Positions 2,729 to 35,002 of a stretch of DNA of 64,000 bases are shown in pieces. The notes under the pieces were generated by a model. That model was not told the DNA's origin, did not search any database, and saw only the letters and a list, made by a program, of their open reading frames with translations. The stretch covers positions 1 through 64,000 of the forward strand of contig NZ_CP076562.1 in NCBI RefSeq assembly GCF_022174665.1. The letters run 5' to 3'. Made by a program: the position numbers and the translations under genes. How positions within the stretch are numbered: the stretch's first letter is position 1; the number at the start of each line of letters is the position of its first letter. Origin of the DNA: Eubacterium sp. MSJ-33. GTDB lineage: Bacteria > Bacillota > Clostridia > Lachnospirales > Lachnospiraceae.

Positions 2729-2751
2729 TTTAAGGAACGAAAGGATATTTC

Positions 2752-4273: not shown

Positions 4274-4290
4274 TTATAATTTTAGAAAAA

Positions 4291-4454: not shown

Positions 4455-4600
4455 GCTTAGAAGTTCTTAATGTTCTGTAATTATATCAGCCATGTTTGAA
4501 CACGATGTTCAAACAAGCCGCCACTGAGCCATGGATGGCGAATTGGCGGCGGTGGCGGATGGTGTGAATATGTAAATCAGAACATTTAGAACTTCTTAGC
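4455..4600. mobile_element. MITE-like structured repeat, copy A (~146 bp, ~22-bp terminal inverted repeats, central TGTTTGAAC..GTTCAAACA palindrome)
   Basis: Intergenic, non-coding. TIRs gcttagaagttcttaatgttctg / cagaacatttagaacttcttagc. A 62-bp core is identical to the reverse complement of 12619-12763 except 1 mismatch. Confidence 0.6.
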
Positions 4601-4679
4601 TACAATACATTGTATATATCCATGAAACCAAATTGAAATATATGTAGAGCCAATGCCAATTAGAAAAAGGGGAGAACTT

Positions 4680-5357: not shown

Positions 5358-5448
5358 CTATGTGTGAAAACAGAAAAATTATAGTTGGTATTATATCTGA
5401 TGTGTGTTCAGGCAAAACAGACGCAGATAAGAAAATGGAGGGATGCAT

Positions 5449-7236: not shown

Positions 7237-7390
7237 AGGGAGTGGATTTTTCCAAATCCTGATAAATATTATCATATGAATAACTTTTCATGTATCAAAA
7301 ATGGTGCTATAATCGGCGGTGGTTAGCGAATGCTAACTGTCGCCGATTTTTGGCGTAGTAAAAGAATAAAAAGAGATGGAGGATACATGT

Positions 7391-8110
7391 ATGAGTGACA
7401 CAGGGAAAAAGACGATCGTTGAATTTCAGGATGTCGTAAAAACCTATGGAGAGGGCGAGGCACTGCAGTATGCCAACAACCATGTGAGCTTTACGATCGA
7501 GGAAGGCGAGTTTGTAGTCATTCTCGGTCAGTCCGGTGCCGGAAAATCCACCGTGTTAAATATGCTTGGCGGCATGGATCTGCCGACATCGGGAAAGGTT
7601 CTGATCGATGGGGAGGAAGTATCCGCCATGAACGATAAACAGCTGTCGGATTTCCGGGCACGCAAGATCGGATTTATCTTTCAGTTTTATAATCTGATTC
7701 CAAGCCTGACGGTACGGGAGAATGTTGCACTGACAAAGAGCATCGTAAAGGATGCCGCGGATCCGGATCAGATGCTTTCCGCGGTTGGACTTGCCGATCA
7801 TAAAGATAAGTTCCCTTCCCAGTTATCGGGTGGCGAACAGCAGCGTGTCTCTATCGCGCGGGCACTTTCCAAGAAGCCGCGTATTATCCTTGGAGATGAG
7901 CCGACCGGTGCGTTGGATTCCGAAACCGGTGTGATCGTCTTGTCGTTATTGCAGAAGCAGAGCCGCGAGGGAAAGAATACGGTTATTCTCGTAACGCACA
8001 ATGCAGATATCGCAAAATGCGCCGATAAAGTGATCCGTATGAAGAACGGAAAGATTCGGGAAGTGATTACGAACGAACACCCACTTGCAGTTGAGGAGGT
8101 GGAGTGGTAA
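7391..8110 (+). CDS. ABC transporter ATP-binding protein (MacB/LolD/FtsE-like)
   Basis: Walker A GQSGAGKST, LSGGEQQR, ILGDEPTGALD; start moved to ATG 7391 (GGAGGA 7 nt upstream). Confidence 0.85.
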   Translation: MSDTGKKTIVEFQDVVKTYGEGEALQYANNHVSFTIEEGEFVVILGQSGAGKSTVLNMLGGMDLPTSGKVLIDGEEVSAMNDKQLSDFRARKIGFIFQFYNLIPSLTVRENVALTKSIVKDAADPDQMLSAVGLADHKDKFPSQLSGGEQQRVSIARALSKKPRIILGDEPTGALDSETGVIVLSLLQKQSREGKNTVILVTHNADIAKCADKVIRMKNGKIREVITNEHPLAVEEVEW

Positions 8111-12535: not shown

Positions 12536-12618
12536 TGGTGATTTATAGGCGTTGTAAATCATGACGTAATTTGTGCATATATGTTGTATCAGATTCTAGT
12601 AATATAAGATGTATTGAA

Positions 12619-12763
12619 ACTAAGAAGTACTAGATGTTCTGATATATGTGTTGTTAATGTACGCAACCGCCGCCAATTCGCCGTCCATGGCTCAGTGGCG
12701 GCTTGTTTGAACATCGTGTTCAAACATTGCTGTGGGGCAACAGAACATCAAGAACTTCTAAGT
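12619..12763. mobile_element. MITE-like structured repeat, copy B (inverted relative to copy A)
   Basis: Reverse complement matches 4455-4600: TIRs conserved, 62-bp core with 1 mismatch, internal variable spacers diverged. Confidence 0.6.
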
Positions 12764-12869
12764 TCCAAACATATTTATATTACTAGAATTTGATACAGAC
12801 ATAAATATACACAAATTACTGTATGATGGACAAAACCTACACAATGTAATAAGAAAAAGGAGAACGAAA

Positions 12870-16272: not shown

Positions 16273-16980
<708 letters not shown>

Positions 16981-19248: not shown

Positions 19249-19938
19249 ATGAACAAAAAAGATCAGAGAGGATACATCGTCCTTGGAATTATATTTGTAG
19301 TATTTACTGTAGTTGCATTTGCAGTACCTTTTTCTAAGAAGGCAGGATTCTGGCTTGGGTATGTATTTGGAATAATAGCGATTGCGTTCCAATTATATAT
19401 TTTCAAAATTTCTTTTGCGCAGGGAGAGGATGTAAAGAGTAAGTTTTACGGATTCCCAATCGCACGTATTGGCGTGATTTATCTGGGTGCACAAATGTTA
19501 TTCAGCATATTGGAGATGGCAACAGCAAAATTCCTTTTACCATGGGTGGCAGTCCTTGTGAATATAGTCATGTTAGCGTTTGCTCTCGTTGGATGCATCG
19601 CTGCAGATATCATGCGGGATGAAATCGTGCGACAGGATGTAAAGCTGGAAAAAGATGTAACCAATATGCGCAGACTCCAATCGTTGTCAGCGTCTCTGGT
19701 AGGACTCTGCCAGGATGAAAATGCAAAGAAAACACTGCAGGATATAGCGGATGAATTCAAGTACAGTGATCCGGTATCATCCGAACAGACAAAGGAAATG
19801 GAAGAGGATATGAAGATGCAGTTAGAGGAACTGCAAAATGCAGTATTGGAAGGGGATGTAAGCAATGTTCTAATGCTATGTGTAAACCTGAAAAATCGCC
19901 TGAATGAGAGAAATCAAATGTGTGCGATGAGTAAGTGA
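19249..19938 (+). CDS. membrane protein, 4 TM + cytoplasmic helical tail (unknown family)
   Basis: Four hydrophobic helices in first 120 aa; 2-bp gap from SPFH gene (translational coupling). Confidence 0.6.
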   Translation: MNKKDQRGYIVLGIIFVVFTVVAFAVPFSKKAGFWLGYVFGIIAIAFQLYIFKISFAQGEDVKSKFYGFPIARIGVIYLGAQMLFSILEMATAKFLLPWVAVLVNIVMLAFALVGCIAADIMRDEIVRQDVKLEKDVTNMRRLQSLSASLVGLCQDENAKKTLQDIADEFKYSDPVSSEQTKEMEEDMKMQLEELQNAVLEGDVSNVLMLCVNLKNRLNERNQMCAMSK

Positions 19939-19982
19939 TTGAAAAAAATGAGAAAAATTTAAGAATGGGAGAGCAATGAATT

Positions 19983-21527
19983 ATGGCACAGATGATAACA
20001 TTTAAATGCAAAATATGTGGAGGTAATCTTACTGTTTCACCGGGTGAGTATTTAGCTGAGTGCGAATATTGTGGAACAACAATGACTATTCCGAATATAG
20101 ACTCTGAAAGAAAAGCACGTATGTTTGATCGTGCAAATCAATATAGAATTAATTGTGAATTTGATAAGGCGTATGAGTCGTTTAAGGTTATTGCGGATGA
20201 GGATGAAACAGAGGCTGAAGCATATTGGGGAATGGTTCTATCAGAGTATGGAATTGAATATGTAGAAGACCCGGAAACACATAGGAGGAAACCGACATGT
20301 CATAGGGCACATTTAGAGTCCATAAAAAAATGCGTTAATTTTCAAATGGCCTGTAAATATGCGGAAAAAGAAAATGTAGTCTGGTATCAAGAAGAAGCGG
20401 AGATAATAGATAATATTTCTAAAAGAATAGCAGGTATCGGAGCAAAGGAAGAACCGTACGATATTTTTATATGTTACAAAGAGACAGATGATATTACAAA
20501 TGAACGAACAGAAGATAGCGTATTGGCTCAATCAATTTATGATGAATTGGTAAAAAGAAACTATCGAGTATTTTTTTCAAGGATATCGTTAGAAGAAAAG
20601 CTGGGTAAAGATTATGAGCCATATATTTATTCTGCATTGGTGAGCGCACCAGTTATGATAGTTGTGACTACTAGCAACGAACATTGTCAGGCTGTTTGGG
20701 TAAAAAATGAGTGGTCAAGATATATTGGATTTATGCATGAGGATGATTCAAAAACCATAATTCCGGTCTACAAGAAAATGTCGCCATATGATTTACCAGA
20801 AGAATTATCAAGATTTCAGGCTCAGGACATGGACAAAATTGGAGCCATCCAGGATTTGGTGCATGCAGTAGAGAAGCTGCTGGGAAATGCAAAAAATAAT
20901 GATTCAGAATCTGTAAAAAATCTTAGAAATGAAATAGAAACACGAAATAGGAAAACAAAGAAAATCATTGTAATTGGTACAATTGCAATCATGTTAGGTG
21001 CTCTTGCTATTGGTATAATTTGGAAAGTTAGAAATAAAAAAATAAACTCAACTACAGACAGCCAGTATGTCATGACTGAACAAGATGAAATAGAGCAGTA
21101 TTATTCAGTAATGCAGGAAGCTTATAAAAATGGAGATTATAACGATGCTGTTTCACAGTGGCTTGAAGCAACGGTTGTTTTGAATGAATATGGGGGAGTT
21201 CAGGGAAAGGAGTATAAGGAGACTAAAGAAATTAAGGAAACAGAAGTGAGATTGTTTGATGAATACATGAAGGAACAGAAAGAAGAATATATGAGTAGAA
21301 ATAGCGATGAGTATTATTACTCTAATTTATATGATGTTTTATATTGTCTATCATACCACAAGCATGTGTTAGACGAATCAGAAATTTTTAATGGTGATGA
21401 AAATGAGAAAAATTTCTATATTAAGATTTTGAAAAAAGCGGCTCAAGAGGAAATTGAAGGTTACAAATATGATTCGCAACAAAGGCAACCATACCAGGAT
21501 ATATATGACTATTTAGACAATATGTAA
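19983..21527 (+). CDS. Zn-ribbon + helical module + TIR domain + single TM + C-terminal extracytoplasmic domain protein
   Basis: N-term FKCKICGG...CEYCG Zn-ribbon. TIR signature at aa 157-285: YDIFICYKETDD..., ...SALVSAPVMIVVTT, ...AVWVKNEWSRY with conserved Glu. TM KIIVIGTIAIMLGALAIGIIWKV at aa 327-349. Confidence 0.7.
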   Translation: MAQMITFKCKICGGNLTVSPGEYLAECEYCGTTMTIPNIDSERKARMFDRANQYRINCEFDKAYESFKVIADEDETEAEAYWGMVLSEYGIEYVEDPETHRRKPTCHRAHLESIKKCVNFQMACKYAEKENVVWYQEEAEIIDNISKRIAGIGAKEEPYDIFICYKETDDITNERTEDSVLAQSIYDELVKRNYRVFFSRISLEEKLGKDYEPYIYSALVSAPVMIVVTTSNEHCQAVWVKNEWSRYIGFMHEDDSKTIIPVYKKMSPYDLPEELSRFQAQDMDKIGAIQDLVHAVEKLLGNAKNNDSESVKNLRNEIETRNRKTKKIIVIGTIAIMLGALAIGIIWKVRNKKINSTTDSQYVMTEQDEIEQYYSVMQEAYKNGDYNDAVSQWLEATVVLNEYGGVQGKEYKETKEIKETEVRLFDEYMKEQKEEYMSRNSDEYYYSNLYDVLYCLSYHKHVLDESEIFNGDENEKNFYIKILKKAAQEEIEGYKYDSQQRQPYQDIYDYLDNM

Positions 21528-21561
21528 TCGATAAAATCATTTCTTTGCGGAGGGGAAAAAC

Positions 21562-23994
21562 ATGGCAAATTATTGTATTTATGAAGTAAAAGTAATTGGA
21601 AGTGAAAAGGCATGTTTAATGGTGTTTGAATCAATGCCATATATGGATTATAACCAGATAGAGACTAAGAATCAGAAGAATGAATTAACAGAGCTTATGT
21701 TTGCAGGCAACTGTAAGTGGTCCGTTAATTTTAAAGTGAGAGATGTATTGTCAAAGGTGGATGTTGATTCTTTTGATGAAACATTAATTCAGGAAAAAGC
21801 TTCTGATTATTACCAATATTCATTAAGAGCAAAGTCTGAAGCATTTGAATGTGAAATATTGGTACATTATTGGTCTGAGGAATCTGGGTTTGATCAGTTT
21901 GACCATTATAAAAATGGAGAAATTATAAAAAAGAGAAAAATAAAATTCAACTCTAAGAAACAAAATCGATTTGACTGGAACAAGACAGAATTCGTCGGAC
22001 ACGAAGGAGAATATGATGAGTCTGTGGATGGTGAGGAACAAGATGAAAAATATGTAAAATTTATAACGGATACTATTAATAAATTGGCTGGAAAGACAGA
22101 TGTGTCAATTGATACAAAAAGAGATAAAAATATGAGTACAGACATGGAAAAAGTAGAAAATGCTATGTATCAATGGACGTTTACACAAGGAAATACAGTG
22201 AACTTGAATGAATGGACGATAGGAATTCCGGATGGATTTATGAAAATAAATTCAGAAGAGATGATACCTACAACACACAAAAAAAGACCATTTGAATTGG
22301 TACCTATCAAAGACAAAGAAAATCCTGAATGTGCGACGGTGCGTATTTTGCCAGGTCTTATGAAAAGCGTAGGAAATATAGGAGTTTCAGATATGTACCA
22401 TCCGCTTGCAAAATTGGGTATTGCAGCAATTGTAGCGTCTAATGGTGCTAAAGACTATTTGAAATCTATGGGTGTTGCTTCAAGAGTATTTTATACAGCT
22501 TGGGATAATTCTTATGCATATATACTTGTTCAAGATGCGTTATTTGATACAGTTGATTATCATTGCACGGTATTGGCAAATGGAAAGATCCAAATCTTGG
22601 GCGTGAGGACAGGCGTTAGCGATGTAGATGATTTTGATGAAGATAGAAAAAAACAGTTAGAGCAGTCAATTATTGAATGGTTACATACAATGCAATCTAA
22701 TAAATGTTCAGTGACTGTTCCAACAGTAAAATTTGAAGATGATGATTGTTTTGATGAGGTTATGAAAGGGAAAAGCCTGAAAAAATTTGAAACTGCTGTA
22801 CAACAAGCGCATGAGGAATATCGTGTAGCAATGTTAGGAAAAATGCATGTTGTAAAGTATGAGTTTGAAAGTGGGGTTGGAGTCGGAAAACAAAATGTAA
22901 AGGAAACGACAAAAGAAGTTCTATTGGAAGGAATGAAGGTACGGGAGTTTTATGCAGAAAAGGCAAATGATTTCGTGCAAAGAATACAGCAAGCGGAGAT
23001 AACGGGGGATACTTTTATAAAAATTCTAAAAAAATTGTTGGAATTAAAGAAGGATGATGAGCTAGCAAAAGTAACAATCGATAATCGTGTGGTTAAGGTG
23101 GATGTTCCAGACAGAGTAAAAGAAATAGAAAAAGAATGGGAGAAGATACTTCGTTCTGAGGAAGAGAAAAAGACAAGGGAACTTCAAAAAAAGAGAGAAA
23201 TAGAGGAAGCGAAAAGAAAAACTGCTTTGGAAAAAGAAGCTGCTGAAAAGAAAGCCAGAATGGAAAAAGAAGTAGCCGCGTGGACGGAAGAGGTTGAGAA
23301 AATAAAGAAAGATCGCGAAGCAAATCGTATAGAGAAAATAGCATCATATGAAGATGTGGCCAAAATTAGAAAGCAACATGCAGAGGAAGTTCGAACAACA
23401 CAACTGGATAGCACAAACGGCATGATTCAGGATTTGAAGAACCGTTTATCTTTGGATACTATAGAACTTGGACAATTGGGAGTGTTAAAGTTTCACAGAA
23501 GAAAAGAATTGCAAAATTCTATTGAACAATTGACAAGAGAATTGCAGGAAAAAGAACATGTCCTTATAACAATTGAAAAGGAATATGAAAAGGAAATAAA
23601 AAATGCTGATGAAGAATACACCCGGAAAGTAAATGGCCTTTCCGCGTATCTGGATGAAAAGTATCAAGTGCCAGAAAGTCCAATGGTGGTTGAAGAAAGA
23701 AAGCAAAGAGAAGAAGAAAAAGAAAAAAAAGAACGAAAAATAAAAGAGGATCCTAATTACGAAATAAAGTTAGAGATAATAGAACTTTTGGAGAGCGGTG
23801 AACCGATGATGTGTACTGAAGTGGCCAAAGAACTTGATATCTCTATAAATAAAGCAGTTGCTCTCATGTCGCAGCTTGCTGGTTCGGCGGATATGGAAAA
23901 ACGAGAACCGGGAAAGATATATCCGCTCATTCGTTTTGCAGATGGAAAGAGGATTAAATTTAAGATTAATCCGGAGTGGGATTCAGAGTTATAA
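21562..23994 (+). CDS. large coiled-coil protein (810 aa) with C-terminal winged-helix
   Basis: ~250-aa Glu/Lys-rich heptad region; C-terminal LEIIELLESGEPMMCTEVAKELDISINKAVALMSQL wHTH-like; unknown N-terminal globular domains. Confidence 0.6.
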   Translation: MANYCIYEVKVIGSEKACLMVFESMPYMDYNQIETKNQKNELTELMFAGNCKWSVNFKVRDVLSKVDVDSFDETLIQEKASDYYQYSLRAKSEAFECEILVHYWSEESGFDQFDHYKNGEIIKKRKIKFNSKKQNRFDWNKTEFVGHEGEYDESVDGEEQDEKYVKFITDTINKLAGKTDVSIDTKRDKNMSTDMEKVENAMYQWTFTQGNTVNLNEWTIGIPDGFMKINSEEMIPTTHKKRPFELVPIKDKENPECATVRILPGLMKSVGNIGVSDMYHPLAKLGIAAIVASNGAKDYLKSMGVASRVFYTAWDNSYAYILVQDALFDTVDYHCTVLANGKIQILGVRTGVSDVDDFDEDRKKQLEQSIIEWLHTMQSNKCSVTVPTVKFEDDDCFDEVMKGKSLKKFETAVQQAHEEYRVAMLGKMHVVKYEFESGVGVGKQNVKETTKEVLLEGMKVREFYAEKANDFVQRIQQAEITGDTFIKILKKLLELKKDDELAKVTIDNRVVKVDVPDRVKEIEKEWEKILRSEEEKKTRELQKKREIEEAKRKTALEKEAAEKKARMEKEVAAWTEEVEKIKKDREANRIEKIASYEDVAKIRKQHAEEVRTTQLDSTNGMIQDLKNRLSLDTIELGQLGVLKFHRRKELQNSIEQLTRELQEKEHVLITIEKEYEKEIKNADEEYTRKVNGLSAYLDEKYQVPESPMVVEERKQREEEKEKKERKIKEDPNYEIKLEIIELLESGEPMMCTEVAKELDISINKAVALMSQLAGSADMEKREPGKIYPLIRFADGKRIKFKINPEWDSEL

Positions 23995-24026
23995 ATATAG
24001 TGAAGGATATGGGAGGCGAAAAGCAA

Positions 24027-24145
24027 TGAGTTGTCCAAGATGTGGTGGAAAAATGGATAGTGGTATTTGCGAGGAATGTGGGTTCCCCATTACTCGTATT
24101 TGGGAACATGAAAATTATTATATGCTTTTATTTAGTGAAATATAA
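24027..24145 (+). CDS. 39-aa zinc-ribbon mini-protein
   Basis: MSCPRCGGKMDSGICEECGFPITRIWEHENYYMLLFSEI; strong RBS gggaggcgaaaagcaATG; the longer 23858 track ORF overlaps the preceding gene. Confidence 0.4.
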
Positions 24146-24165
24146 TTGTACGGGAGAGATTTATT

Positions 24166-27100
24166 ATGAAAATTAGAACGGATTTTGTGACAAATTCAAG
24201 TAGTAGTTCTTTTGTTGTTGAAATTTCTTTTACTTTGAAGGATGGCAGGGTGTTGAGGCGTTGTGAAGTAGGAGGGGAGGATGGAAGAGATTTATATGTG
24301 TGTGCGAGTCCAAGACAACTTGGTCTCTGTAAGAATGTTGAGGAAATGATTACGCTGTTAAATGATAGCGTAAAAGTCGAGGAGCGCTTTGATGACTGTA
24401 ATAGAAAGAAATTTGTTGATACAAATTTTATACAGCAACTTGAGTCAATAAAAGAAATGAGCGAAATTGAAAAAATTACAATTTCGGGAAATGAACTAAA
24501 TTATGAAGAGTATGAGAGAATTTATAGATATAATCTTGATACAGAAGAGTATACCTGCGAAATTTTTGGAGAGGAATTTGAAAGTGAAGGATCAGGAGGA
24601 AATCTGGAATTTTGTGACGGATTTTTGGCAACACGTCAGGATGGATATGATGATGGGGAGTTTTTGCGTGTTGAAGATTTACCAATAATTGTTCCGTTGG
24701 AAGAAAGTAGTGATAAAGAACAGGTAAGTTTATTGGAAAATGTCAGAGAAGGTGAAAAACTTATTCTGAAAAATGAATTTACGGATGATTTATTTGACCC
24801 TGTAAAAATAGGCGTTTTTAATAAAAAAAATCAGCTGCTAGGGTATCTTTGCGAATTGGACTATTCGTTAATAGCAATAGCAAGAGCATTAGAAGATGTT
24901 GATGCTTGTGTCGATTCTGTCGCACCATTATCTGGTAGAAAGAAAAATGAAGAATATTCTTTAATGGATGTGAGAATTACATCAAAGGAAGGAAATAACC
25001 CATTTGCAGAAGGTTATAAAATAAAATTTGATGTAAGTGAATTATCTGAAGATGAGAAAAAGTTATTTAATGAAATGATAGAGCACTGGAGAAATCAGTA
25101 TGACAAAGAAGAAGTAACTATGAGCTGGATTTTTAAAATAAATCCACCAGAGTATTTTGTGACTTGTGATGAATTTGATGAAAAAACAGCAGAAGAAACA
25201 AAAAGATTTTTACAAGAAGCAGGTAGCAGAAGTAGCTTAAAAAAGTTACATGCAACATTTTGGGGAAATCTGAATTTTGAAAAAAGAAAATTTCGGCAGT
25301 ATAACTATCTGCTGGATAGAGGATTCTTAGATTGTGAAAAAACAATAGAAGAAAAGAAAGATGAATGCATTACTAATCAGTCATCTTCGTTGGAAGAAAA
25401 AATAGAAAAAGCAGTCGAGAAAGTGAGCAACTTGAAAAAAATGTCTAATACCATGTTTTATGATAGTAGGCATAGTGTGAATATGGATTTTCAAAAAGGA
25501 AAGATTGTTGAATTTGGTAATTATAGACAAGGAAAAAATGGAGTAGTTAAACCTTTACAATGGGTTGTTTTGGAGCGAAAGGGGAATGGTGCAAAACTTC
25601 TTTCATTAAAAGGAATTGAAACCTTGCCATACAATGTCAAAGATGGAAAAACAAGCTGGGAGAAATGCTTTCTTCGTTCGTGGTTGAACACAGAATTTTA
25701 TAATGCTGCATTTTCTTCTGAAGAGGCAGAAAGCATTATTTTATCGGATGTGGTTGCGGTTAGGCACCCCCAATATTTAACTTCACCAGGAAATGATACG
25801 AAAGATAAAATTTTTCTTTTAAATTATCAGGAGGCTGAGAACGTTGGGAAAAGGTGGAAAAAAACATATTTAACGGAATGGGCAGTTCAAAATGATGACT
25901 TGTTTAAAAAAAATTATGGCATAAATAATTATGCACTGTGGTGGTTGAGAACTCCGGCTAGTGCAACGAAAAGAAGTTGTGTGATGGGAAAATATATTTC
26001 TGGGATAGATGTTCGAGATGTTGATGGTATAGCGGTTAGACCTGCGATTTGGATAAATCTTAATTCAGAATATTTTGGTGGATCATTTGAAGTAATGGTA
26101 AAGGATGCTGAGAAAGAATTGTCTGTTGATGAGGTAATTGAAAAAATAAAAGAAAAATACAATACGAAAACAAAACCGACATCTACAATAGAATTTGATA
26201 TTCAAAATGTAGAATACACTAAGCAATTAAATGAATTAAAAAAGAAATGTGAAAATGAATTAGAAATTACATACAGAAATTATTTAATTCAAATGGGAGT
26301 TTTAGGAGACAAGGTAAAATTAATTGATACATACGATCCGTCAGAAATGATCAAGACCTTAAAAGAAAAATATAACAACAGTGAATTAAAACCGAAAACA
26401 TTTGTTGAGTTGATGGATAAAAATCCGGAATTCCGCGAAGAATTAAATACTTTACGTTCTGTATCTCAAAAAAAGTATGGAGATACAGCTGTTGACTATT
26501 TGAAAAAACAGGGGATAATTGCAACTTCGGAGGAAATAGCAGCTATCAGACAAGAAAAAATTAAAAAAATAGTGGTGGAAACAGCAGAACGGAAAGCAGA
26601 AATAAGAAGAAAGGAACGATTAAGGAAAGTTGATAGGATACAAATACAAGATGCAAAATTGCAAAATAAAGTAGATAAATTAATTTATGGCCTGAATGAA
26701 TTATATCCTGAGCATAAAGTATTTTCTTTGGATAGTTTGGATGGCACTCTGCGGGAAAATTTATCAAAGTATGCAAAACAAATAGGATATTTATCTGCTG
26801 ACGATATGCTTTTGGCATATGATTTTGTGAAGATTGATGCTGATGAGGTTAAAGAAATCCGCCCTAATGTATTACATAAACCGGGAAATGAACCAGAAAT
26901 AATCAAGGGTAAGGTGCAAAGTATATTAAGACGATTAGAAGAATATTATCCGGATAAAAAAATAGAGAGGAGTATTCAGTTGGATCATAAAAAACTAAGC
27001 CAAAGTATTACTGGGGCATATCTTTGGCTTGGATATAACAATCAAGGGGAATTCCTGAAGGCTTACGGATATGAAAATAATATAAAATATAATGAAAATG

Positions 27101-27318
27101 GGCGTGGTGGAGGAAGACCATCTTCGACAAATGTAGAAGAGCTTATTATGGAATTAAAGAAAAGAAGTGGAGGAAATCCATATTCTGGATTTAAGGAATT
27201 AAAAGAGAAGAATCCGGATCTGGCAGGAAAGTTAAAAACTATATCTAACAAAGCAAATAGTTTGTTAGGAATGCCGTTCGTAAAGTATTTAAAGCAAGAG
27301 GGAATCGTGCGTGATTAA
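24166..27318 (+). CDS. 1050-aa protein: Ser-run N-terminal module (MKIRTDFVTNSSSSSF), HIRAN-like segment, DUF6273-like domain, long helical C-terminus
   Basis: DUF6273-like block GKIVEFGNYRQ...PLQWVVLE...LLSLKGIETLPYN...SWEKCFLRSWLNTEFYNAAFSSEE...YALWWLRTPAS...VRPAIWINL; HIRAN-like GEKLILKNEFTDDLFDPVKIGVFNKKNQLLGYL. Confidence 0.65.
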   Translation: MKIRTDFVTNSSSSSFVVEISFTLKDGRVLRRCEVGGEDGRDLYVCASPRQLGLCKNVEEMITLLNDSVKVEERFDDCNRKKFVDTNFIQQLESIKEMSEIEKITISGNELNYEEYERIYRYNLDTEEYTCEIFGEEFESEGSGGNLEFCDGFLATRQDGYDDGEFLRVEDLPIIVPLEESSDKEQVSLLENVREGEKLILKNEFTDDLFDPVKIGVFNKKNQLLGYLCELDYSLIAIARALEDVDACVDSVAPLSGRKKNEEYSLMDVRITSKEGNNPFAEGYKIKFDVSELSEDEKKLFNEMIEHWRNQYDKEEVTMSWIFKINPPEYFVTCDEFDEKTAEETKRFLQEAGSRSSLKKLHATFWGNLNFEKRKFRQYNYLLDRGFLDCEKTIEEKKDECITNQSSSLEEKIEKAVEKVSNLKKMSNTMFYDSRHSVNMDFQKGKIVEFGNYRQGKNGVVKPLQWVVLERKGNGAKLLSLKGIETLPYNVKDGKTSWEKCFLRSWLNTEFYNAAFSSEEAESIILSDVVAVRHPQYLTSPGNDTKDKIFLLNYQEAENVGKRWKKTYLTEWAVQNDDLFKKNYGINNYALWWLRTPASATKRSCVMGKYISGIDVRDVDGIAVRPAIWINLNSEYFGGSFEVMVKDAEKELSVDEVIEKIKEKYNTKTKPTSTIEFDIQNVEYTKQLNELKKKCENELEITYRNYLIQMGVLGDKVKLIDTYDPSEMIKTLKEKYNNSELKPKTFVELMDKNPEFREELNTLRSVSQKKYGDTAVDYLKKQGIIATSEEIAAIRQEKIKKIVVETAERKAEIRRKERLRKVDRIQIQDAKLQNKVDKLIYGLNELYPEHKVFSLDSLDGTLRENLSKYAKQIGYLSADDMLLAYDFVKIDADEVKEIRPNVLHKPGNEPEIIKGKVQSILRRLEEYYPDKKIERSIQLDHKKLSQSITGAYLWLGYNNQGEFLKAYGYENNIKYNENGRGGGRPSSTNVEELIMELKKRSGGNPYSGFKELKEKNPDLAGKLKTISNKANSLLGMPFVKYLKQEGIVRD

Positions 27319-27353
27319 TCGTCTGGAGTTTTGGCAAAGAGAGAGGTAAATGT

Positions 27354-28451
27354 GTGAAATATATAATCAGGGATAAAAAATATCGTTTTAAATCAGCGTT
27401 TGATATGGAAACAGGTGCATATGTAAGAACCGGTATTTTAGATGAAAATGGGGAGGATACAGGGGTAGATCCTTTTATGGCGTCTTTTCCGCATCTTATT
27501 GATGTGGGTGTAATGGGACATTGCACTCATGGAAAAACAGGTTTGTGTGCAAGAGCAGGTATAGGCTGTTATCAGAATGGTTTGTATATCAATCAACCCA
27601 ATATGAGTGTAGAAGATTTCCGATGGATTGCGGAACAGTGTAAGGGTAGATGTAATCAATTAGCGCTTGGGGGACGTGGGGATCCAGACCAACATGAACA
27701 ATTTGAAGAACTACTAATGATTAGTAGAGAAAATATGTTAGTTCCTAATTTTACAACTTCTGGTTATGGAATGACAACACAGATTGCGTCCTTGTGTAAA
27801 AAGTATTGTGGCGCGGTTGCTGTTAGTTGGTATAGGAATGAGTATACAATAGAGGCAATAAATATGTTGTTGGAAGCGGGTGTTAAAACAAATATACATT
27901 ATGTGTTGGGAAATAATAGTATTAACGAGGCAATTGAGAGGTTATCAACTGATGATTTCCCGAAAGGTATTAATGCAGTTATTTTTCTTTTACATAAGCC
28001 CGCAGGGCAGGGAACGAAAGATAACATGTTGGCTGTTGGGGATCCGCGAGTAAAGCGTTTTTTTGAGCAGATTGAAAAAAAACATCCGTTTAAGGTAGGA
28101 ATGGATAGCTGCAATGTGCCGGGAGCAATTAATTTTTGTAATAAAATCATTCCGGAATCGTTAGACACATGCGAGGGAGGCCGATATAGCTGCTATATTG
28201 GTGCAGATATGATTATGGTTCCGTGTAGCTTTGATCAACAGAAAATATATGGGGTGTCTCTAAGAAAAATGGATATAACAGATGCTTGGAATAGCATACA
28301 ATTCAAAAACTTTAGAGACAAAATGAAAAATGTCTGTCCGGACTGCAATAAAAAAGCGTTGTGCATGGGAGGATGTCCCCTTATGCCGGAAATTGTATTT
28401 TGCAACAGAAAGGAAAGAAAATTGTATAAAGGAGAAGACAATGAAAATTAG
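27354..28451 (+). CDS. radical SAM/SPASM-like Fe-S protein with non-canonical N-terminal Cys motif (CX7CX6C)
   Basis: GTG start with RBS agagagg. GHCTHGKTGLCARAGIGC where CX3CX2C is expected. GGRGDP at GGE-motif position. NFTTSGYG at ribose-motif position. C-terminal Cys clusters CNVPG..FCNK..C.GG..C and CPDCNKKALCMGGCP typical of SPASM/twitch. Confidence 0.45.
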   Translation: MKYIIRDKKYRFKSAFDMETGAYVRTGILDENGEDTGVDPFMASFPHLIDVGVMGHCTHGKTGLCARAGIGCYQNGLYINQPNMSVEDFRWIAEQCKGRCNQLALGGRGDPDQHEQFEELLMISRENMLVPNFTTSGYGMTTQIASLCKKYCGAVAVSWYRNEYTIEAINMLLEAGVKTNIHYVLGNNSINEAIERLSTDDFPKGINAVIFLLHKPAGQGTKDNMLAVGDPRVKRFFEQIEKKHPFKVGMDSCNVPGAINFCNKIIPESLDTCEGGRYSCYIGADMIMVPCSFDQQKIYGVSLRKMDITDAWNSIQFKNFRDKMKNVCPDCNKKALCMGGCPLMPEIVFCNRKERKLYKGEDNEN

Positions 28452-28515
28452 AACAGAGTTTGTAACTAATTCAAGTAGTAGCAGTTTTAGTGTTATGCAG
28501 ATGTTGAGGAAGTAG
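28441..28515 (+). CDS. orphan 24-codon ORF duplicating the N-terminal module of the 24166 gene (MKIRTEFVTNSSSSSFSVMQMLRK)
   Basis: Strong RBS aaggagaag; first ~50 nt near-identical to 24166-24215; overlaps the 3' end of the rSAM-like gene by 11 nt; may be a precursor-like peptide or a gene-start remnant. Confidence 0.35.
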   Translation: MKIRTEFVTNSSSSSFSVMQMLRK

Positions 28516-28647
28516 ATATAACTACTAAAAAAATTAGAAATTTTAAAAGGTATTATTTGCAACAAAGGGATATTAGATTTGGTTGGAGCATGGAGTGATC
28601 GTCATATAGAATTATGATTTTGCATAAGGAAAGATGAGGAATGGAAG

Positions 28648-30378
28648 ATGCAGGAAAATTATGAGTTAGTACAACGAGGTTTTCGAAAACTGGTAGTTAC
28701 GTTTTCTGGTTATATTGGAAGGGAATTCAGTAAAAAATATAAAAATGCATGGTGGGACGAAGTGTTAGAGGCATTATCAGACCAGCATGATTTGCCAAGT
28801 GATGGTGAATATGGATATCTGATAGATTCATTAGATATTTTAAATTGTATTCGCTTATTAGAACGCAGGTGGAAAGAAGTTTTTCAAGATGAGTTACCTT
28901 TGAACTGTCGTACATGGGCAAAAGAACTTAAGGGGATTAGGAATAAAGTCGCTCATATTGGTCAGCAGGATTTGGATCAGCCCATAGCAGAACGTGCACT
29001 TGACACGATGCGTTTGCTATGTAAAGAATTGGATTCGGATGATGCGGCAGAAATTGAAAAAATATATGAAGAGGTTAGAAAAAGAGCAAATGATTATCGA
29101 CCGGTGACGCGTATTTTTGAGGGAGTAGAGCAACCGGCTTCAGAATCTAATCGCGGTGAATTGATGAAAGATAGTCTTCTTCAGCTTGTCGGAACGGATG
29201 TGGTTCAGAAAACAACGTTGACAAGGAAGGTAACATATGGAGGGAAAACAGTTATTTACCCGGTGTATCGGATTCGCTTAGACTATCTTTTTTATAATGA
29301 TCAGAATGATCGAATAGCAACCTGGATTACCCGATATCAGGCTGAAAATGGCGAAGATTCTTTGCTTGAGCTAGGGAGAGAAGAATACAATAATGTTATT
29401 GAAACATTTATATATGAAAGCAATCCGGATGCAATATCAAAAACACAAAAAAATATTTTGTTGGTCGGACAACGTGAGCCGGGAGTTACTTTATCAGATG
29501 GGCGTATTGTGGATGGAAACCGAAGATACACTTGTTTGCGAAGAATTCAACGTGAGAAAATAGGACCTGTTTATTTTGAAACAGTAATTATGGATATGGA
29601 TATCCGGGAAGACAAGAAACAGATAAAATTATTGGAACTTGCAATACAGCACGGAGAAGAAAAAAAGGTAGACTATGATTTGATTGATTATGCGATTGGT
29701 ACATATAGGGATATTGTGCAGACAAAGCTGCTTACATTGGACGAATACGCAACAGGGACAAATGAAAAACCGGCAGATGTAAAAAATCGAATTGAAATTG
29801 CAGAAATTATTAGTGAGTTCCTAAAGTATATAAAGCTTCCGGAGCAATATCACATTGCGAGGGAATATCAGGTTTATAGTTTGTTTCAGGAGATGATGGC
29901 TCCGCTTAAAAAGTTGAATGAATCAGAAAAGGCGCAACTAAAGAAAATAACATTTAATAATGCTATGATGAAAGTTATACCTGACCAGAGAAAATTTATA
30001 CGAGATATTAAAGGACTGGTTAAAAATGGCACCTATGAATCATATTTTGAAGAACAAATGAATTGGATTAATGTGATTCGGGACAAGTTTGATATGTGCG
30101 AAGTTCATTCTAAAAGTGATATAGACAAGTTTGCAGAAGAAAATGCGAAGATTGCAGAGGAATTGCAAATATCGATGGAAAGAGCTCTGCAAAAATCCCG
30201 GTCAATAATATTAAAAAATAAACCGGTAGAAAATGTGTCAAAAAGTATTACTCTTTTAACAGAGGTGGATTCCAGACTGTTTGGAAGGTTGGAAGAGGAA
30301 GAGAAAAAGCAATTAAAAGACGAATTGGATGAACTTGCAAGAATTGTAGATGTGTTTCGGGAAAAACTTGTGAGGTAG
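28648..30378 (+). CDS. HEPN (Swt1-like, Rx4H) N-terminal domain fused to ParB/Srx-like (DUF262/DGQHR-type) domain
   Basis: GIRNKVAH at 28939-28956 at the end of a ~110-aa helical domain with conserved W/R pattern; downstream IVDGNRRYTCLRRI matches the ParB/DUF262 DG(Q/N)(Q/H)R motif. Confidence 0.5.
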   Translation: MQENYELVQRGFRKLVVTFSGYIGREFSKKYKNAWWDEVLEALSDQHDLPSDGEYGYLIDSLDILNCIRLLERRWKEVFQDELPLNCRTWAKELKGIRNKVAHIGQQDLDQPIAERALDTMRLLCKELDSDDAAEIEKIYEEVRKRANDYRPVTRIFEGVEQPASESNRGELMKDSLLQLVGTDVVQKTTLTRKVTYGGKTVIYPVYRIRLDYLFYNDQNDRIATWITRYQAENGEDSLLELGREEYNNVIETFIYESNPDAISKTQKNILLVGQREPGVTLSDGRIVDGNRRYTCLRRIQREKIGPVYFETVIMDMDIREDKKQIKLLELAIQHGEEKKVDYDLIDYAIGTYRDIVQTKLLTLDEYATGTNEKPADVKNRIEIAEIISEFLKYIKLPEQYHIAREYQVYSLFQEMMAPLKKLNESEKAQLKKITFNNAMMKVIPDQRKFIRDIKGLVKNGTYESYFEEQMNWINVIRDKFDMCEVHSKSDIDKFAEENAKIAEELQISMERALQKSRSIILKNKPVENVSKSITLLTEVDSRLFGRLEEEEKKQLKDELDELARIVDVFREKLVR

Positions 30379-30383
30379 GGGTT

Positions 30384-33302
30384 ATGAATATAAAAATATT
30401 ATCAATTGATGAAATAGGTTTGTCAAATCGTTCTGTGAATGCACTACATAGGGTGGAAATATATACAGTTGGGGAGATGATAGAATTAAACGAAGAATTT
30501 TTGCATAAGATTAGAAATATTGGAGAAAAATCAATTGAAGAAATTTGTAAGAAAATACAGGAATATAAAATATTGGAAACAAATTCGAATATTGAAGTTC
30601 CGGAAGATTTTGATGAATGGATTTTGGTTGAATCCAACCAGCAATTTGTAATAACGTGGTTAAGAGATAATAAGATAAAAATCGACGAATTAGAATTATT
30701 ATCGGTACGGGCATATAATTTGCTGATATTTTCAGGGTATGAGTATTTGTATCAGGTGGCTTTTCTTACAGAAAAAGATTTGATGCAGATTCCCAGAATG
30801 GACAGCTCATCTGCATTAGAAATTGTTCGGTATGTATCAAGATATATTGCGGAACAACAAGAACAAATTATTGCGTCAATTGTTCAGATGCAGTCTAAGG
30901 AGACACCATTAAATCAGGTGTCAGTTTTTGATATACTTGATAAAATTGAATATCATGATGTGATATTGGACTTTGTGAAATTGCATGATATTTTGCTTGA
31001 TGGAATGAATATTTCCAATCGGGCAAAAAATAGCTTGAGTATAAGCGGGTATTATTATCTTAGTGATATAGTATTTATGACATATACGCAGCTGAAAAAT
31101 ATACCATCTATGGGAGCTGGAACGGCAAAAGAAGTTATAGATAAAATAAATGAATATCTAAGTAAATATGAAGCGAGAATTTTGGCATTCGTTAGTGGTG
31201 ATGTGTCTGGGTTATGGGATGACACAGAAATACAACAGAGGATTTGGAATCAGTTTCGTGATATTGGATTTCAAGGACTTAGTCTGAATGAAATAGTAGA
31301 ACGGATGAAGCTTCCGGAACAAGTGACGATAGAGCGAATAAAGAAAAATATAGGTCAGCTGATTGTTGATAAAAAATTAGAATATGTAGATTATCGATGT
31401 TACCGTGTGTATGCGCGGTTTGCGGATTATTTGGAGCAATGTGATGTTATTGATGAAAGATCAAAAAATATTTTAAGAAAACGATTGCAATCTATGACAT
31501 TAGAAGAGATTGGACAAGAAGAAGGGATAACCAGAGAACGGGTACGTCAAATCCTGAAGAAAGGGATTGTCCAAATTAAAAAAATATATAAGTCAAGGGA
31601 AGGTACCAATTTATTTGATGAGGATTATTATCGATATTTGTATGAAAATTATGATTTTGATAAAAAGGATGGAACGGAATGGCTTGGAATTCCCGTATAC
31701 GTATGGAAATATCTTGAGTTAAATGATGTAAAACAGGGAAAGAAAGAGTTGCAGTCGGCGAGGGAAGATCAACAGGGACTTGATCTTGGAATGCGTTTGA
31801 AAATAAAAAACTATCTTAATAGAAATAAACTTTTTGTGGATGGTAGATGGATTGAAAAGGAGCGTGCGGAATTAGAAAAGGTTGTTATTAGAAAATTTTG
31901 TCAGGAAGATGTATCGTTTGGGAAGTTTTGCCAGATATATAATCAGTTTTTGTTACAGGAAGAAATACCATATGATGAAGATATCTATTATACAGAGACA
32001 GTGTATCGGACAAGAAAAAATCGTATTCGTGATTTAAGATACTTGCTTTGGAAACAGCACGAACAAATAAGATATTATGATATTGATGGACGTGATTATG
32101 ATGAACTTTTGGATACATTAAATCTGGATGCTTATGAGAATATTGAATTGTCGACAGAAAAATTCATGAGAGATTATCCGGAAATTATGAAGAAATATGA
32201 TATCCGGGATAAGTATGAATTACATAATTTATTAAGGAAAATCATACCGGAAGGAAGTTATCATGAGTTTTTCTGTGAACGTACGCCAAATATCAGATTT
32301 GGACACTTTGATCGTGATGCTGCAGTATTGGACATTTTGATTGATAATGCGCCAATAGCTCAGGATGATTTAGCGGATCTAATAAGTGAGGAATATGGAT
32401 TTGATGCGGATGGAATAAAATCTAATTATTTGAAGCCGGTTTCAGAGTATTTACATCAACGTACATATTCGATTGATCAGAAATCCATGTCTGTTGAAAA
32501 TCGAGAATTATTACATGAAGCACTTACAGATGATTTCTATTTTATGGATGAGATTCGACAGATTTATGATAGGTTAATTCCAGGGGCAGATAGAGAAGAG
32601 ATTAATCCGTATAATTTGAAGGTGATGGGATTCCATGTTTATTCAAGATATGCAATTCAAAACCATTCGTCTGTTGATGCGTATTTTGATGACTTATTAA
32701 CGCGGGAAGATATTATAGATATTACAGCGTATAAAAAAAGATATGCATATGTGCAGATGTTTTCGCAGAAGTTGATGGAATTAAAACGAGATTTAACAGT
32801 AATTGAATTTGAAAAAAATCAGATTATTAATTTTAGAAAATTGGAGCAATCAGGTGTTACGAAAAATATGATTCAGGAATTTTGTGATAATGTTTATAAC
32901 TTTATTACAGATGGAACATATTTTAGTATTCAATCCTTGATACAGGATGGCTTTCAGTCTGACTTGCATGAGCTGGGATTTTCTGATTGGTTTTATGCGA
33001 ATTTGTTAATATCTGATGAACGTTTTTCAGCTGCTATGATGTTTGGAAATTTGATTTTTTATAAGGGAAAAGCGTCAATAACGATTAAGATGTTTGAAAA
33101 AGATATTATTTGTAAGTATCAAAGTATGGATACATATGATCTTGTGGATGAACTTACCGATCGGTATGGATGTAAGGTTCCGGATAAATATGATGTTATC
33201 TATAAAGTTCAGGATACAGAGGTGTATTATGATAAAATCTTAGATCGTCTGTATGCCAACATGAATGTATATGATGAAGAATGCGCGAGAGGAGGGTTTT
33301 AA
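30384..33302 (+). CDS. 972-aa protein: 3x RNA-polymerase alpha-CTD-like HhH repeats + sigma-70 region-4-like HTH + ~600-aa unknown C-terminal region
   Basis: LSIDEIGLSNRSVNALHRVEIYTVGEMIELNEEFLHKIRNIGEKSIEEI (alpha-CTD pattern) repeated at aa ~100 and ~200; MTLEEIGQEEGITRERVRQILKKG (sigma r4.2 pattern). Confidence 0.55.
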   Translation: MNIKILSIDEIGLSNRSVNALHRVEIYTVGEMIELNEEFLHKIRNIGEKSIEEICKKIQEYKILETNSNIEVPEDFDEWILVESNQQFVITWLRDNKIKIDELELLSVRAYNLLIFSGYEYLYQVAFLTEKDLMQIPRMDSSSALEIVRYVSRYIAEQQEQIIASIVQMQSKETPLNQVSVFDILDKIEYHDVILDFVKLHDILLDGMNISNRAKNSLSISGYYYLSDIVFMTYTQLKNIPSMGAGTAKEVIDKINEYLSKYEARILAFVSGDVSGLWDDTEIQQRIWNQFRDIGFQGLSLNEIVERMKLPEQVTIERIKKNIGQLIVDKKLEYVDYRCYRVYARFADYLEQCDVIDERSKNILRKRLQSMTLEEIGQEEGITRERVRQILKKGIVQIKKIYKSREGTNLFDEDYYRYLYENYDFDKKDGTEWLGIPVYVWKYLELNDVKQGKKELQSAREDQQGLDLGMRLKIKNYLNRNKLFVDGRWIEKERAELEKVVIRKFCQEDVSFGKFCQIYNQFLLQEEIPYDEDIYYTETVYRTRKNRIRDLRYLLWKQHEQIRYYDIDGRDYDELLDTLNLDAYENIELSTEKFMRDYPEIMKKYDIRDKYELHNLLRKIIPEGSYHEFFCERTPNIRFGHFDRDAAVLDILIDNAPIAQDDLADLISEEYGFDADGIKSNYLKPVSEYLHQRTYSIDQKSMSVENRELLHEALTDDFYFMDEIRQIYDRLIPGADREEINPYNLKVMGFHVYSRYAIQNHSSVDAYFDDLLTREDIIDITAYKKRYAYVQMFSQKLMELKRDLTVIEFEKNQIINFRKLEQSGVTKNMIQEFCDNVYNFITDGTYFSIQSLIQDGFQSDLHELGFSDWFYANLLISDERFSAAMMFGNLIFYKGKASITIKMFEKDIICKYQSMDTYDLVDELTDRYGCKVPDKYDVIYKVQDTEVYYDKILDRLYANMNVYDEECARGGF

Positions 33303-33307
33303 TTATA

Positions 33308-33808
33308 ATGGTTCAGGCAAAAAAACAGTTTCTTGATGAAGTAGAAAAACTTCATGAAAGAAATGAACTATCCAAGAAAGTAGAAGCAACATATTTTGAA
33401 CCGGGAATGATGGAGTATCTGGAACAATCAGAAGGTATATATGAAGAGGGTACAGGGAATGTTATTCTTCGTTTTGAAGTTATGGGAACACGTTATGATG
33501 GTCGGACAGAGCAGATTGAAAAGTTAAAACCGGGGGACTTGATACAAATAGTCAGAGAAAAAGAAAATCCTTACAACTCTAATAATTTTACTTTGCTGAC
33601 AAAACGAGGACAAAATGTGGGGAATATGCCGGCTAATTTATGTAACGCGATTGCACCATTGTATGATGAAGGAAATTTAAAAATCATGGATGCCTCTGTT
33701 AGCTATGTGGAACCTATTTCCAAGAGAAATCGTCATGCCAAGCAAGCTATCTTATTTGTGGAATTAAAGGCAAAACTGAATTCCGCCCTGAATTCCGCCC
33801 CATGCTAG
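33308..33808 (+). CDS. HIRAN domain protein
   Basis: FEVMGTRYDGRTEQIEKLKPGDLIQIVREKENPYNSNNFTLLTKRGQNVGNMPANLCNAIAPLYDEG matches HIRAN (3'-DNA-end binding) pattern; C-terminal 12-bp tandem duplication ctgaattccgcc x2 (LNSALNSA). Confidence 0.55.
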   Translation: MVQAKKQFLDEVEKLHERNELSKKVEATYFEPGMMEYLEQSEGIYEEGTGNVILRFEVMGTRYDGRTEQIEKLKPGDLIQIVREKENPYNSNNFTLLTKRGQNVGNMPANLCNAIAPLYDEGNLKIMDASVSYVEPISKRNRHAKQAILFVELKAKLNSALNSAPC

Positions 33809-33865: not shown

Positions 33866-35002
33866 GTGGGATATATCTTAAAATTATTCGATACAGATCT
33901 TTTGAAGTTTGATGTGATTGAGAACTTGGCAGATCCTGTACTTAAGATAACATGGATGGATGAATCGCGGAAGGCACTGTTTCCACTTGGAATGGAAGTG
34001 TCAGACGACGGAATTGCAAGTTTTATTCGGCATCGTTGTATACCGAAGAACCGGGCATATGTGAATGCGTTTCTGGCAAAAAATGGACTTAGTGCAAATC
34101 GCCCTATGGATGTGATTACGGTATGTAAAGGCCTTTCTCTGAATGATTCGTATTGGATTACAGAAGAGGATTCGGTGCAGAGTTTTGCATCCAGCAACCT
34201 GTACGAGAATCGTTTCAGTCGTTTGCTTGCGTGGACGGCATTTACCGGATATGGCAGTAGTGTGCGGGCAACGTTTTTATCTTCACCGGAATTTACGACG
34301 AATGGTATGCTGCCGAAATGCTGGCGCAGAATGGAGAATAAAATATATCTCTATAAAGGAGCGACTTCCGGTGCAGCCAATACTGGAATGGAACCGTATT
34401 CCGAATTGTATGCGTATGAGATTGGTGCGCATGCCGGATTTTCGGTAATCCCTTATAAAATAAGCGTATGGAAGGGAAATGTATGCTCTGTATGTGAGCT
34501 TTTTACAAGCAAAGATCTGGCATATGTTCCGGCTGGGTATATTATAAAAAAAGGTGGCATGGACGCTGTCCGTAAGTTTTATGGAACATTAGGTGCAGAA
34601 TTTGTGGATGCGTTGGATGAGATGTTGGTATTTGATGCGATTGTCTGCAATACAGATCGCCATTTCGGAAACTTTGGCGTGCTTGTGGACAGTCACACAA
34701 ATCAGATTGCAGCACCGGCGCCATTGTTTGATCATGGCAATGCACTTTTTAATTTGGCGGGTGAAGAAAACTGGGAGAATGAGAACATATTGCAGGCGTA
34801 TATAGACACGTTATTTCCTTGTGTCTATGATGATTTTATGGAGGAAGCGAAGCGTGTGTTGAAACCATCAATTCGGGAAAAGGTAAAAAAGCTTTTAACA
34901 TTCGAAGTGAAAAAGATGGGAAGAACGAATTATGACAGTAAAAAATTGAAGCTTATGACAAAGATTATTCAGAAGCGCGCAAGAGCACTTTTGGAATCAT
35001 AA
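33866..35002 (+). CDS. HipA-like Ser/Thr kinase domain protein (no adjacent HipB-type HTH gene)
   Basis: HipA_C motifs VFDAIVCNTDRHFGNFGVL and APLFDHGNAL; GTG start. Confidence 0.6.
   Translation: MGYILKLFDTDLLKFDVIENLADPVLKITWMDESRKALFPLGMEVSDDGIASFIRHRCIPKNRAYVNAFLAKNGLSANRPMDVITVCKGLSLNDSYWITEEDSVQSFASSNLYENRFSRLLAWTAFTGYGSSVRATFLSSPEFTTNGMLPKCWRRMENKIYLYKGATSGAANTGMEPYSELYAYEIGAHAGFSVIPYKISVWKGNVCSVCELFTSKDLAYVPAGYIIKKGGMDAVRKFYGTLGAEFVDALDEMLVFDAIVCNTDRHFGNFGVLVDSHTNQIAAPAPLFDHGNALFNLAGEENWENENILQAYIDTLFPCVYDDFMEEAKRVLKPSIREKVKKLLTFEVKKMGRTNYDSKKLKLMTKIIQKRARALLES

Follow-up and report, generated by a model that had tools for sequence, protein, structure and literature searches.

The nearest described counterpart of the protein studied here is PglW of type 2 BREX/Pgl systems, whose putative nucleic-acid-binding part consists of a helical domain resembling the C-terminal domain of the RNA polymerase (RNAP) alpha subunit (alpha-CTD) followed by three winged-helix modules (PMC12839542). 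Kinase domains and an inactive STAND ATPase are also part of PglW, which comes from a methyltransferase/PglZ system. ParB-like modules coupled to a nuclease effector, in neighbourhoods of restriction-modification (R-M) type, are found in GmrSD/BrxU, SspE and DndB, and Swt1-type HEPN-ParB fusions were catalogued by Anantharaman et al. 2013, where a sigma4/winged-helix partner goes unmentioned (PMC3710099). Finally, a sigma-70 region 4 helix-turn-helix (HTH) is also present in MzaA, a large protein associated with defence in the MZA system. We analysed the first 64,000 nucleotides of contig NZ_CP076562.1 of Eubacterium sp. MSJ-33 (the window), in which a 972-aa protein joins three alpha-CTDs, a sigma-70 region 4 HTH and about eight winged-helix domains, and is encoded between genes for a HEPN-ParB-like protein and a HIRAN-domain protein. 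We propose, with as much confidence as doubt, that it would be the subunit responsible for targeting and scaffolding, with no enzymatic role, in a three-gene conflict system that is most likely directed against phages or plasmids. No description of this three-gene cassette (the triad) was found in the literature searched.

The resemblance to PglW is confined to a single repeat: the PADLOC and NCBIfam PglW models match only the first alpha-CTD (aa 8-62), at 22-24 bits against 990 (22.3 for NF033442), and the 972-aa protein has no enzymatic domain. The likeness extends to the company kept, as relatives of the system adjoin BrxL and one ParB-like partner has a tail resembling the PglZ C-terminus. 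In MzaA the HTH alone matches (25.4 bits against 800), and there it is C-terminal and accompanied by other partner genes. GmrSD/BrxU, SspE, DndB and the catalogued HEPN-ParB fusions likewise differ from our locus in lacking a sigma4/winged-helix partner and a HIRAN gene.

RNAP-like modules and a winged-helix array

The open reading frame starts with ATG and its product is recorded by NCBI as WP_238298499.1, 'DNA-directed RNA polymerase subunit alpha C-terminal domain-containing protein'. A preliminary description of the window, made from its letters, had proposed three alpha-CTD-like repeats and a sigma-70 region 4 segment, and both hold: Pfam detects RNA_pol_A_CTD (PF03118) three times along the protein (E 1.3e-33; 115 bits, gathering score 23.8) and Sigma70_r4 (PF04545) over aa 356-400 (E 1.4e-9; 37.8 bits, cut-off 24.1). 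The peptide quoted there for the sigma segment, MTLEEIGQEEGITRERVRQILKKG, occupies aa 371-394 (nt 31494-31565), inside the approximate range given for it. With more than 498 full-length homologues of the protein, these matches are not due to chance. The NCBIfam rpoA and sigma models match the same short segments only, far under their whole-protein cut-offs. The N-terminal dimerisation and assembly domain of RpoA was not found (TIGR02027 scores 98.5 bits against 227.8, over model positions 236-293 only), nor was Sigma70_r2 at E<=1 in Pfam (TIGR02937 scores 30.3 bits against 42.9). The protein shares the folds of the RpoA CTD and of primary sigma region 4.2 by profile, but without the alpha N-terminal domain and sigma regions 1-3 it cannot serve as a subunit of the polymerase or as a sigma factor.

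We fetched the E. coli K-12 rpoA and rpoD gene sequences as references and aligned them with the 972-aa protein; invariance was judged on an alignment (A1) of 28 homologues. In RpoA, residues R265, N268, G296, K298 and S299 make up the complete DNA-binding '265 determinant'. Repeat 1 keeps all five (R16, N19, G47, K49 and S50), the lysine being nearly invariant and the other four strictly so. Repeat 2 has the equivalents of R265 and N268 (R109 and N112) without the G-K-S hairpin residues, and its S107 and N112 are invariant, while repeat 3 has those of R265, N268 and G296 (R213, N216 and G244). The R265 and N268 equivalents are therefore present in all three repeats.

The sigma module is preserved to the same degree. 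RpoD contacts the -35 hexamer through R584, E585, R586, R588 and Q589, together with L573, E574 and K593, and every one of these residues is identical in the 972-aa protein. Its recognition helix, T383-R-E-R-V-R-Q389, aligns with T583-R-E-R-I-R-Q589 of RpoD, and T372, L373, E374 and K393 correspond to T572, L573, E574 and K593; over the whole segment T-L-E-E-I-G...T-R-E-R-V-R-Q-I-L-K-K faces T572-L-E-E-V-G...T583-R-E-R-I-R-Q-I-E-A-K593. Residues R384, E385, R386, R388 and Q389 are invariant, RERxRQ is kept by about 122 of 150 family representatives, and the module is basic (+5). Between the last alpha-CTD and the sigma module lies a further conserved segment (Table 1) which, from its sequence pattern, may be another winged helix.

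The C-terminal ~570 aa had been called uncharacterised, and sequence searches of PDB and Pfam indeed gave no meaningful match; the region does, however, fold as a tandem winged-helix array in AlphaFold2. A first model from 13 close homologues (pLDDT 68.5) was replaced by one from an alignment of 69 distant representatives, which reached a pLDDT of 92.2 and a pTM of 0.82. In this model of the last 568 aa, units of three helices and a beta-hairpin superpose on solved winged-helix domains; counted from the secondary-structure pattern of the model, there are about eight of them and no enzyme fold. The top Foldseek matches were UFL1-DDRGK1, Dcc1, ESCRT-II, STK19, SelB and a Wadjet JetABC chain. Apart from the Wadjet chain, most of these are protein-binding platforms, but TM-scores are low (0.1-0.3), sequence identities are 8-14%, and nothing indicates that ancestry or function is shared. 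A search of viral structures with the array model returned nothing specific.

The array is strongly acidic, with a net charge of -33 (mean of -32.7 over 28 homologues), and is the best-conserved part of the protein (55-76% pairwise identity), the linkers between alpha-CTDs being the least conserved. The family built around it comprises 1288 clusters at 50% identity, 584 of them at E<=1e-30, out of 1.84 billion representatives searched. Among the matches listed, the array is C-terminal in nearly all relatives; those N-terminal parts that were checked carry a sigma region 4 and between two and five alpha-CTDs, sometimes joined by another domain such as LRR_5. Taken together, these results lead us to see the N-terminus as a probable head for reading nucleic acid or RNAP, and the C-terminus would be a protein-binding platform.

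A conserved cassette with a modular core

The product of the upstream gene has an N-terminal HEPN_Swt1 domain (E 6e-24, 84.9 bits against 27.5 in Pfam) whose Rx4H motif, R98-N-x-V-x-H103, is invariant in an alignment of 21 homologues (A3). This bears out the HEPN half of the HEPN-ParB label that the preliminary description had given it. Assignment of the remaining ~400 aa to the ParB/Srx group has weak support, and we treat it as no more than probable. A D-G-N-R-R motif (aa 289-293) is invariant both in A3 and in an alignment of distant variants (A5), and plasmid relatives at 31-37% identity are labelled 'ParB N-terminal domain-containing' by NCBI. Pfam ParBc has no match in this protein. Comparison of the profile with an approximate sequence of B. 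subtilis Spo0J by hhalign gave a probability of 0.2%, which we count as no support rather than as refutation.

The gene for the 972-aa protein is separated from each neighbour by 5 bp, as previously noted. The HIRAN start was set at 33308, which is also the NCBI start and the point from which homologues align. The order HEPN_Swt1 protein (574-577 aa), alpha-CTD protein and HIRAN protein (162-165 aa) recurs in four independent metagenomic contexts with unrelated flanks, and in a tblastn survey of 24 loci the triad was intact in all ~20 that had sufficient flank, with gaps of 3-35 bp. Identity to the window proteins ranged from 38 to 60% for the 972-aa protein, from 52 to 73% for the HEPN partner and from 57 to 70% for the HIRAN protein. 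Linkage to both partners thus holds in every informative locus, as the preliminary description had anticipated, and the protein is not scattered in unrelated contexts. Many copies of the triad have their own canonical promoter; upstream of the operon, 15 loci yielded no conserved operator or TTGACA cluster, only ordinary and unrelated promoters. Hosts among the matches listed (at least 16 loci) are Lachnospiraceae, Oscillospiraceae, Ruminococcaceae, Enterocloster, Butyrivibrio and one Collinsella. The distribution is patchy across Clostridia, with copies on plasmids too. One locus (L023) holds a decayed cassette, from which it follows that the system can be lost by decay.

More distant relatives, at 33-40% identity, lack HEPN and have exchanged their accessory parts, yet keep a sigma4/winged-helix protein next to a ParB-like protein in five of six loci (Table 1). 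In one of them (L026), the ParB-like protein matches the HEPN-partner profile over columns 185-579 (probability 100%). All close loci have the HIRAN gene directly 3' of the alpha-CTD gene, and two distant ones have a HIRAN gene as well. Since the pair persists while its partners are swapped, the conserved core is the sigma4/winged-helix protein with its ParB-like partner, to which HEPN, HIRAN, SNF2, BrxL/AAA and the alpha-CTD repeats have been added as modules.

Three of the distant cassettes are flanked by BrxL, two of them also by AAA (AAA_lid_6) ATPases, single or as a fused double protein, and the ParB-like protein of L026 shows, in its last 100 aa, a weak resemblance to the end of PglZ (E 2e-4); these features point to a link with BREX. 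On Lactococcus and Lacticaseibacillus plasmids a ParB-like homologue of the window partner and an SNF2 helicase follow the two Type III R-M genes, which suggests that the two serve Type III restriction as accessories.

Table 1. Positions of the cassette, its modules, its surroundings and related loci. Window features are numbered along the 64,000-nt window, other loci along their own sequence.
Feature	Position (strand)	Residues	Description
Gene 1	28648..30378 (+)	576 aa	HEPN (Swt1), aa 10-128; conserved ~400-aa ParB-like module, aa ~176-576
Gene 2	30384..33302 (+)	972 aa	alpha-CTD x3 / sigma region 4 / winged-helix-array protein
alpha-CTD repeat 1	30402..30563 (+)	7-60	Pfam best stretch and RpoA alignment
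alpha-CTD repeat 2	30681..30863 (+)	~100-160	Pfam and RpoA alignment
alpha-CTD repeat 3	30999..31169 (+)	~206-262	Pfam and RpoA alignment
Conserved segment	31251..31418 (+)	~290-345	GLSLNEIVERM...LEYVDYRCYRV; block L332-E-Y-V-D-x-R338 invariant (28 homologues)
Sigma-70 region 4 HTH	31449..31583 (+)	356-400	Pfam and E. coli RpoD alignment
C-terminal module	31596..33299 (+)	405-972	~8 tandem winged-helix domains, net charge -33; family-defining part
Gene 3	33308..33808 (+)	166 aa	HIRAN-domain protein; Pfam HIRAN E 1e-12, 48.2 bits against 24.7
HipA-like kinase gene	33866..35002 (+)	378 aa	Directly 3' of the HIRAN gene; NCBI 'XRE family transcriptional regulator'
Hairpin	35011-35044		Strong, terminator-like; after the kinase gene
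Low-GC island	~19800..33800		GC 0.30-0.39 against ~0.45 outside
Serine recombinase gene	16318..16980		Near the island
Zinc-ribbon protein gene	17378..19246 (+)	622 aa	Several N-terminal zinc ribbons
Membrane protein gene	19249..19938	229 aa	Predicted; follows the 622-aa gene
Zn-ribbon/TIR-like gene	19983..21527	514 aa	Weak Thoeris ThcB4 match
Coiled-coil gene	21562..23994	810 aa	
DUF6273 gene	24166..27318	1050 aa	
Radical-SAM/SPASM gene	27354..28451		
TwoAYGGAY motif	4445..4610 (+)		Rfam RF01731, full-length
TwoAYGGAY motif	12609..12773 (-)		Rfam RF01731, full-length
L026	1841..11853		33% identity; BrxL, two AAA ATPases, alpha-CTD/sigma4/winged-helix protein, 544-aa ParB-like protein without HEPN, HIRAN
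L025	7755..11091		Winged-helix protein, ParB-like protein, BrxL
L034	145..10183		BrxL, double AAA ATPase, separate alpha-CTD gene before sigma4/winged-helix protein, ParB-like protein, HIRAN
L033			Leucine-rich repeat/alpha-CTD/sigma4/winged-helix protein, ParB-like protein (contig end)
L032			No ParB-like gene adjacent
48-52 Enterococcus plasmids			Sigma4/winged-helix protein without alpha-CTDs, ParB-like protein, SNF2 helicase
L028, L029 (Lactococcus, Lacticaseibacillus plasmids)	1002..9016; 1..7160		Type III R-M methyltransferase (mod) and endonuclease (res), ParB-like protein and SNF2 helicase; no winged-helix protein
L023	7667..8387		Remnant: HEPN gene (~110 aa left), winged-helix region (~75 aa left)
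L002	4009..7809		Upstream of triad: 135-aa second HIRAN protein, WYL/WCX protein with FokI_D3-like domain, 740-aa protein without Pfam match
L007	13535..22934		Directly after triad: nine same-strand genes of 313-400 aa, one with mTERF matches, the others without Pfam match

Proposed function and competing explanations

The company of HEPN RNase, BrxL, SNF2 helicase and Type III R-M genes indicates defence. More precisely, we read the triad as a conflict system because the HEPN Rx4H motif is invariant, the cassettes sit in variable regions, relatives are associated with BREX and Type III R-M, and the system occurs on plasmids and is essentially absent from phages. It is probably an undescribed anti-phage system, modular and of the restriction or abortive-infection type, with a sensor subunit that has no precedent.

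In the mechanism that we favour, the three products would act as a complex. The head (aa 1-404) would bind promoter-like DNA, that is, A/T-rich UP-like DNA beside a TTGACA-like hexamer; alternatively, it could dock on RNAP. A DNA-targeting or transcription-related role had been thought conceivable from the letters of the window, and the intact contact residues fit it, the function itself being what we infer. The acidic platform (aa 405-972) would be where the ParB-like partner, and probably also the HIRAN protein, is held. The ParB-like module may, as in other ParB/Srx proteins, be a switch gated by nucleoside triphosphate (NTP), whose closure on DNA would bring together two N-terminal HEPN domains; so paired, these would form a composite RNase site and shut the cell down. 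HIRAN, if it resembles that of HLTF in function, might signal that the invader's DNA has free 3' ends or forks.

Several observations weigh against this proposal. Host promoters also have -35 and UP elements, so that a promoter-like target raises a problem of self versus non-self. The alpha-CTD repeats are absent in the Enterococcus variant and are therefore not essential to the core mechanism. L032 is the one exception to the pairing with a ParB-like gene. A hypervariable sensor region was sought in the 972-aa protein and not found, only the linkers between repeats being variable. For the ParB half of the HEPN-ParB label, Pfam ddrB-ParB matches stay below threshold in three relatives (15.8-18.5 bits against 27.6, always at D-G-N-R-R), and PDB searches with the HEPN-ParB-like protein and with profiles A3 and A5 gave nothing meaningful. 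PADLOC-DB 2.0.0 returned only the local PglW match for the 972-aa protein and none for the HEPN-ParB-like protein; the case for defence is consequently one of guilt by association, no PADLOC model matching either of them over most of its length. The Enterococcus, Lactococcus and L026 relatives were also unmatched in this database, apart from the local match of the PglZ-like tail.

A different use of the same parts would be that of an integrated decoy, in which the alpha-CTDs and sigma region 4 are not DNA readers but baits mimicking the RNAP surfaces attacked by phage takeover proteins. Binding of a bait by an anti-sigma factor, or its modification at the position of alpha R265, would close the ParB-like switch and fire the fused HEPN RNase. 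Phage T4 does target both modules, sigma region 4 through AsiA and alpha R265 through Alt and ModA, and here the two are found together in one non-polymerase protein. The R265 equivalent is present in all three repeats; the conserved residues are nevertheless exactly the DNA-contact ones, which DNA binding explains equally well. Repeat number varies from zero to five between relatives, as it would in bait arrays, but the repeats are not singled out as fast-evolving, the linkers being the variable part, and their likeness to the E. coli alpha-CTD is low (34% identity for repeat 1 and 26% for repeats 2 and 3). The remainder of the protein, an acidic scaffold of protein-binding type, and an effector that is an RNase of abortive-infection type would both suit a decoy. 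On balance we consider this explanation unlikely.

Alternatively, the system could silence or regulate foreign and mobile DNA by occluding promoters, instead of triggering abortive infection: the head would rival RNAP at -35 and UP elements, and the ParB-like partner would spread or clamp in the manner of KorB. The intact -35-reading helix and alpha-CTD DNA determinant, and the obligate pairing with a ParB-like protein, are what such a silencer would have, and conjugative and mobilizable plasmids of Enterococcus often carry the system. Yet in the clade of the window the ParB-like protein is fused to a HEPN RNase whose catalytic motif is intact, and SNF2 helicase, BrxL and HIRAN partners and adjacency to Type III R-M typify restriction-like systems, not regulators. 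Nor was any ParA or partition context found, or a conserved operator upstream of the operon in the 15 examined. We regard a silencing role as improbable.

The kinase gene that follows the HIRAN gene raises another alternative. Its product has a weak Pfam HipA_C match and matches PADLOC PDC-M03A (E 2e-17), and no HipS-HIRAN antitoxin gene lies 3' of it, unlike in described hipIN modules. That the three genes are mere neighbours, the alpha-CTD protein being an independent DNA binder and HIRAN plus kinase a toxin-antitoxin of hipIN/PDC-M03 type, is very hard to credit. In its favour, PADLOC places the HIRAN protein in PDC-M03B, HipS-HIRAN antitoxins have been described alongside HipI kinases (PMC8262856) and no terminator-like site separates the two genes. 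Against it, the triad is always intact, yet at no other locus is HIRAN followed by the kinase; the match of the HIRAN protein to the PDC-M03B profile is confined to the HIRAN part (positions 121-227 of 245), with no HipS-like domain in the protein; the gene order is the reverse of hipIN (PMC8262856), and base composition differs (GC 0.41-0.44 for the kinase gene against 0.32-0.39 for the triad). We therefore rejected this pairing, and the kinase is not part of the triad system.

A phage origin was considered and rejected as well. Across 50,697 phage records, tblastn found only alpha-CTD-sized fragments and four ParB-like matches, and PHROGs gave only a generic sigma match for the 972-aa protein. 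Transcription hijacking, another role that the preliminary description had entertained, is unlikely, as the system is cellular or plasmid-borne and travels with the defence-type genes named above.

Neighbouring genes and implications

The triad of the window lies in a low-GC island near a serine recombinase gene (Table 1). Triads are often found beside defence genes, and their neighbours include TIR-like and HipA-like genes in the window and NERD-UvrD, PIN, SbcCD and WYL genes elsewhere. Four further island proteins (the 514-aa, 810-aa, 1050-aa and radical-SAM/SPASM proteins) have no PADLOC match. Just before the island, the 622-aa zinc-ribbon protein ends in three near-identical repeats, WDC(T/A)CG(Q/K)TGNTG(N/K)FC(S/N)NCG(A/K)K. 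Two TwoAYGGAY RNA motifs were found further upstream (126 and 128 bits against 43), the second just upstream of a threonyl-tRNA synthetase-like gene on the opposite strand. In other loci, the genes upstream of the L002 triad may be a separate HIRAN-containing module, and the nine genes that follow the L007 triad may be paralogues, judging from their similar lengths.

The main interest of the locus is that both promoter-reading surfaces of RNAP are exactly preserved in a protein of immune context. If our proposal is right, bacteria have built the promoter-recognition parts of their own polymerase into an immune sensor. Were the head a reader, the invader would be recognised by promoter-like DNA, a recognition pattern that to our knowledge is not known in defence; were it a decoy, the protein would guard polymerase surfaces hijacked by phages and be a prokaryotic counterpart of the integrated decoys of plant nucleotide-binding leucine-rich repeat (NLR) receptors. 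Either possibility can be tested directly, because decades of work on RpoA and RpoD have established which residues to mutate. The family is large, common in human-gut Clostridia and on Enterococcus plasmids, and its modular partners (HEPN, SNF2, BrxL, HIRAN and adjacent Type III R-M genes) connect it with BREX-like and restriction-like systems, in which the sensing steps remain poorly understood.

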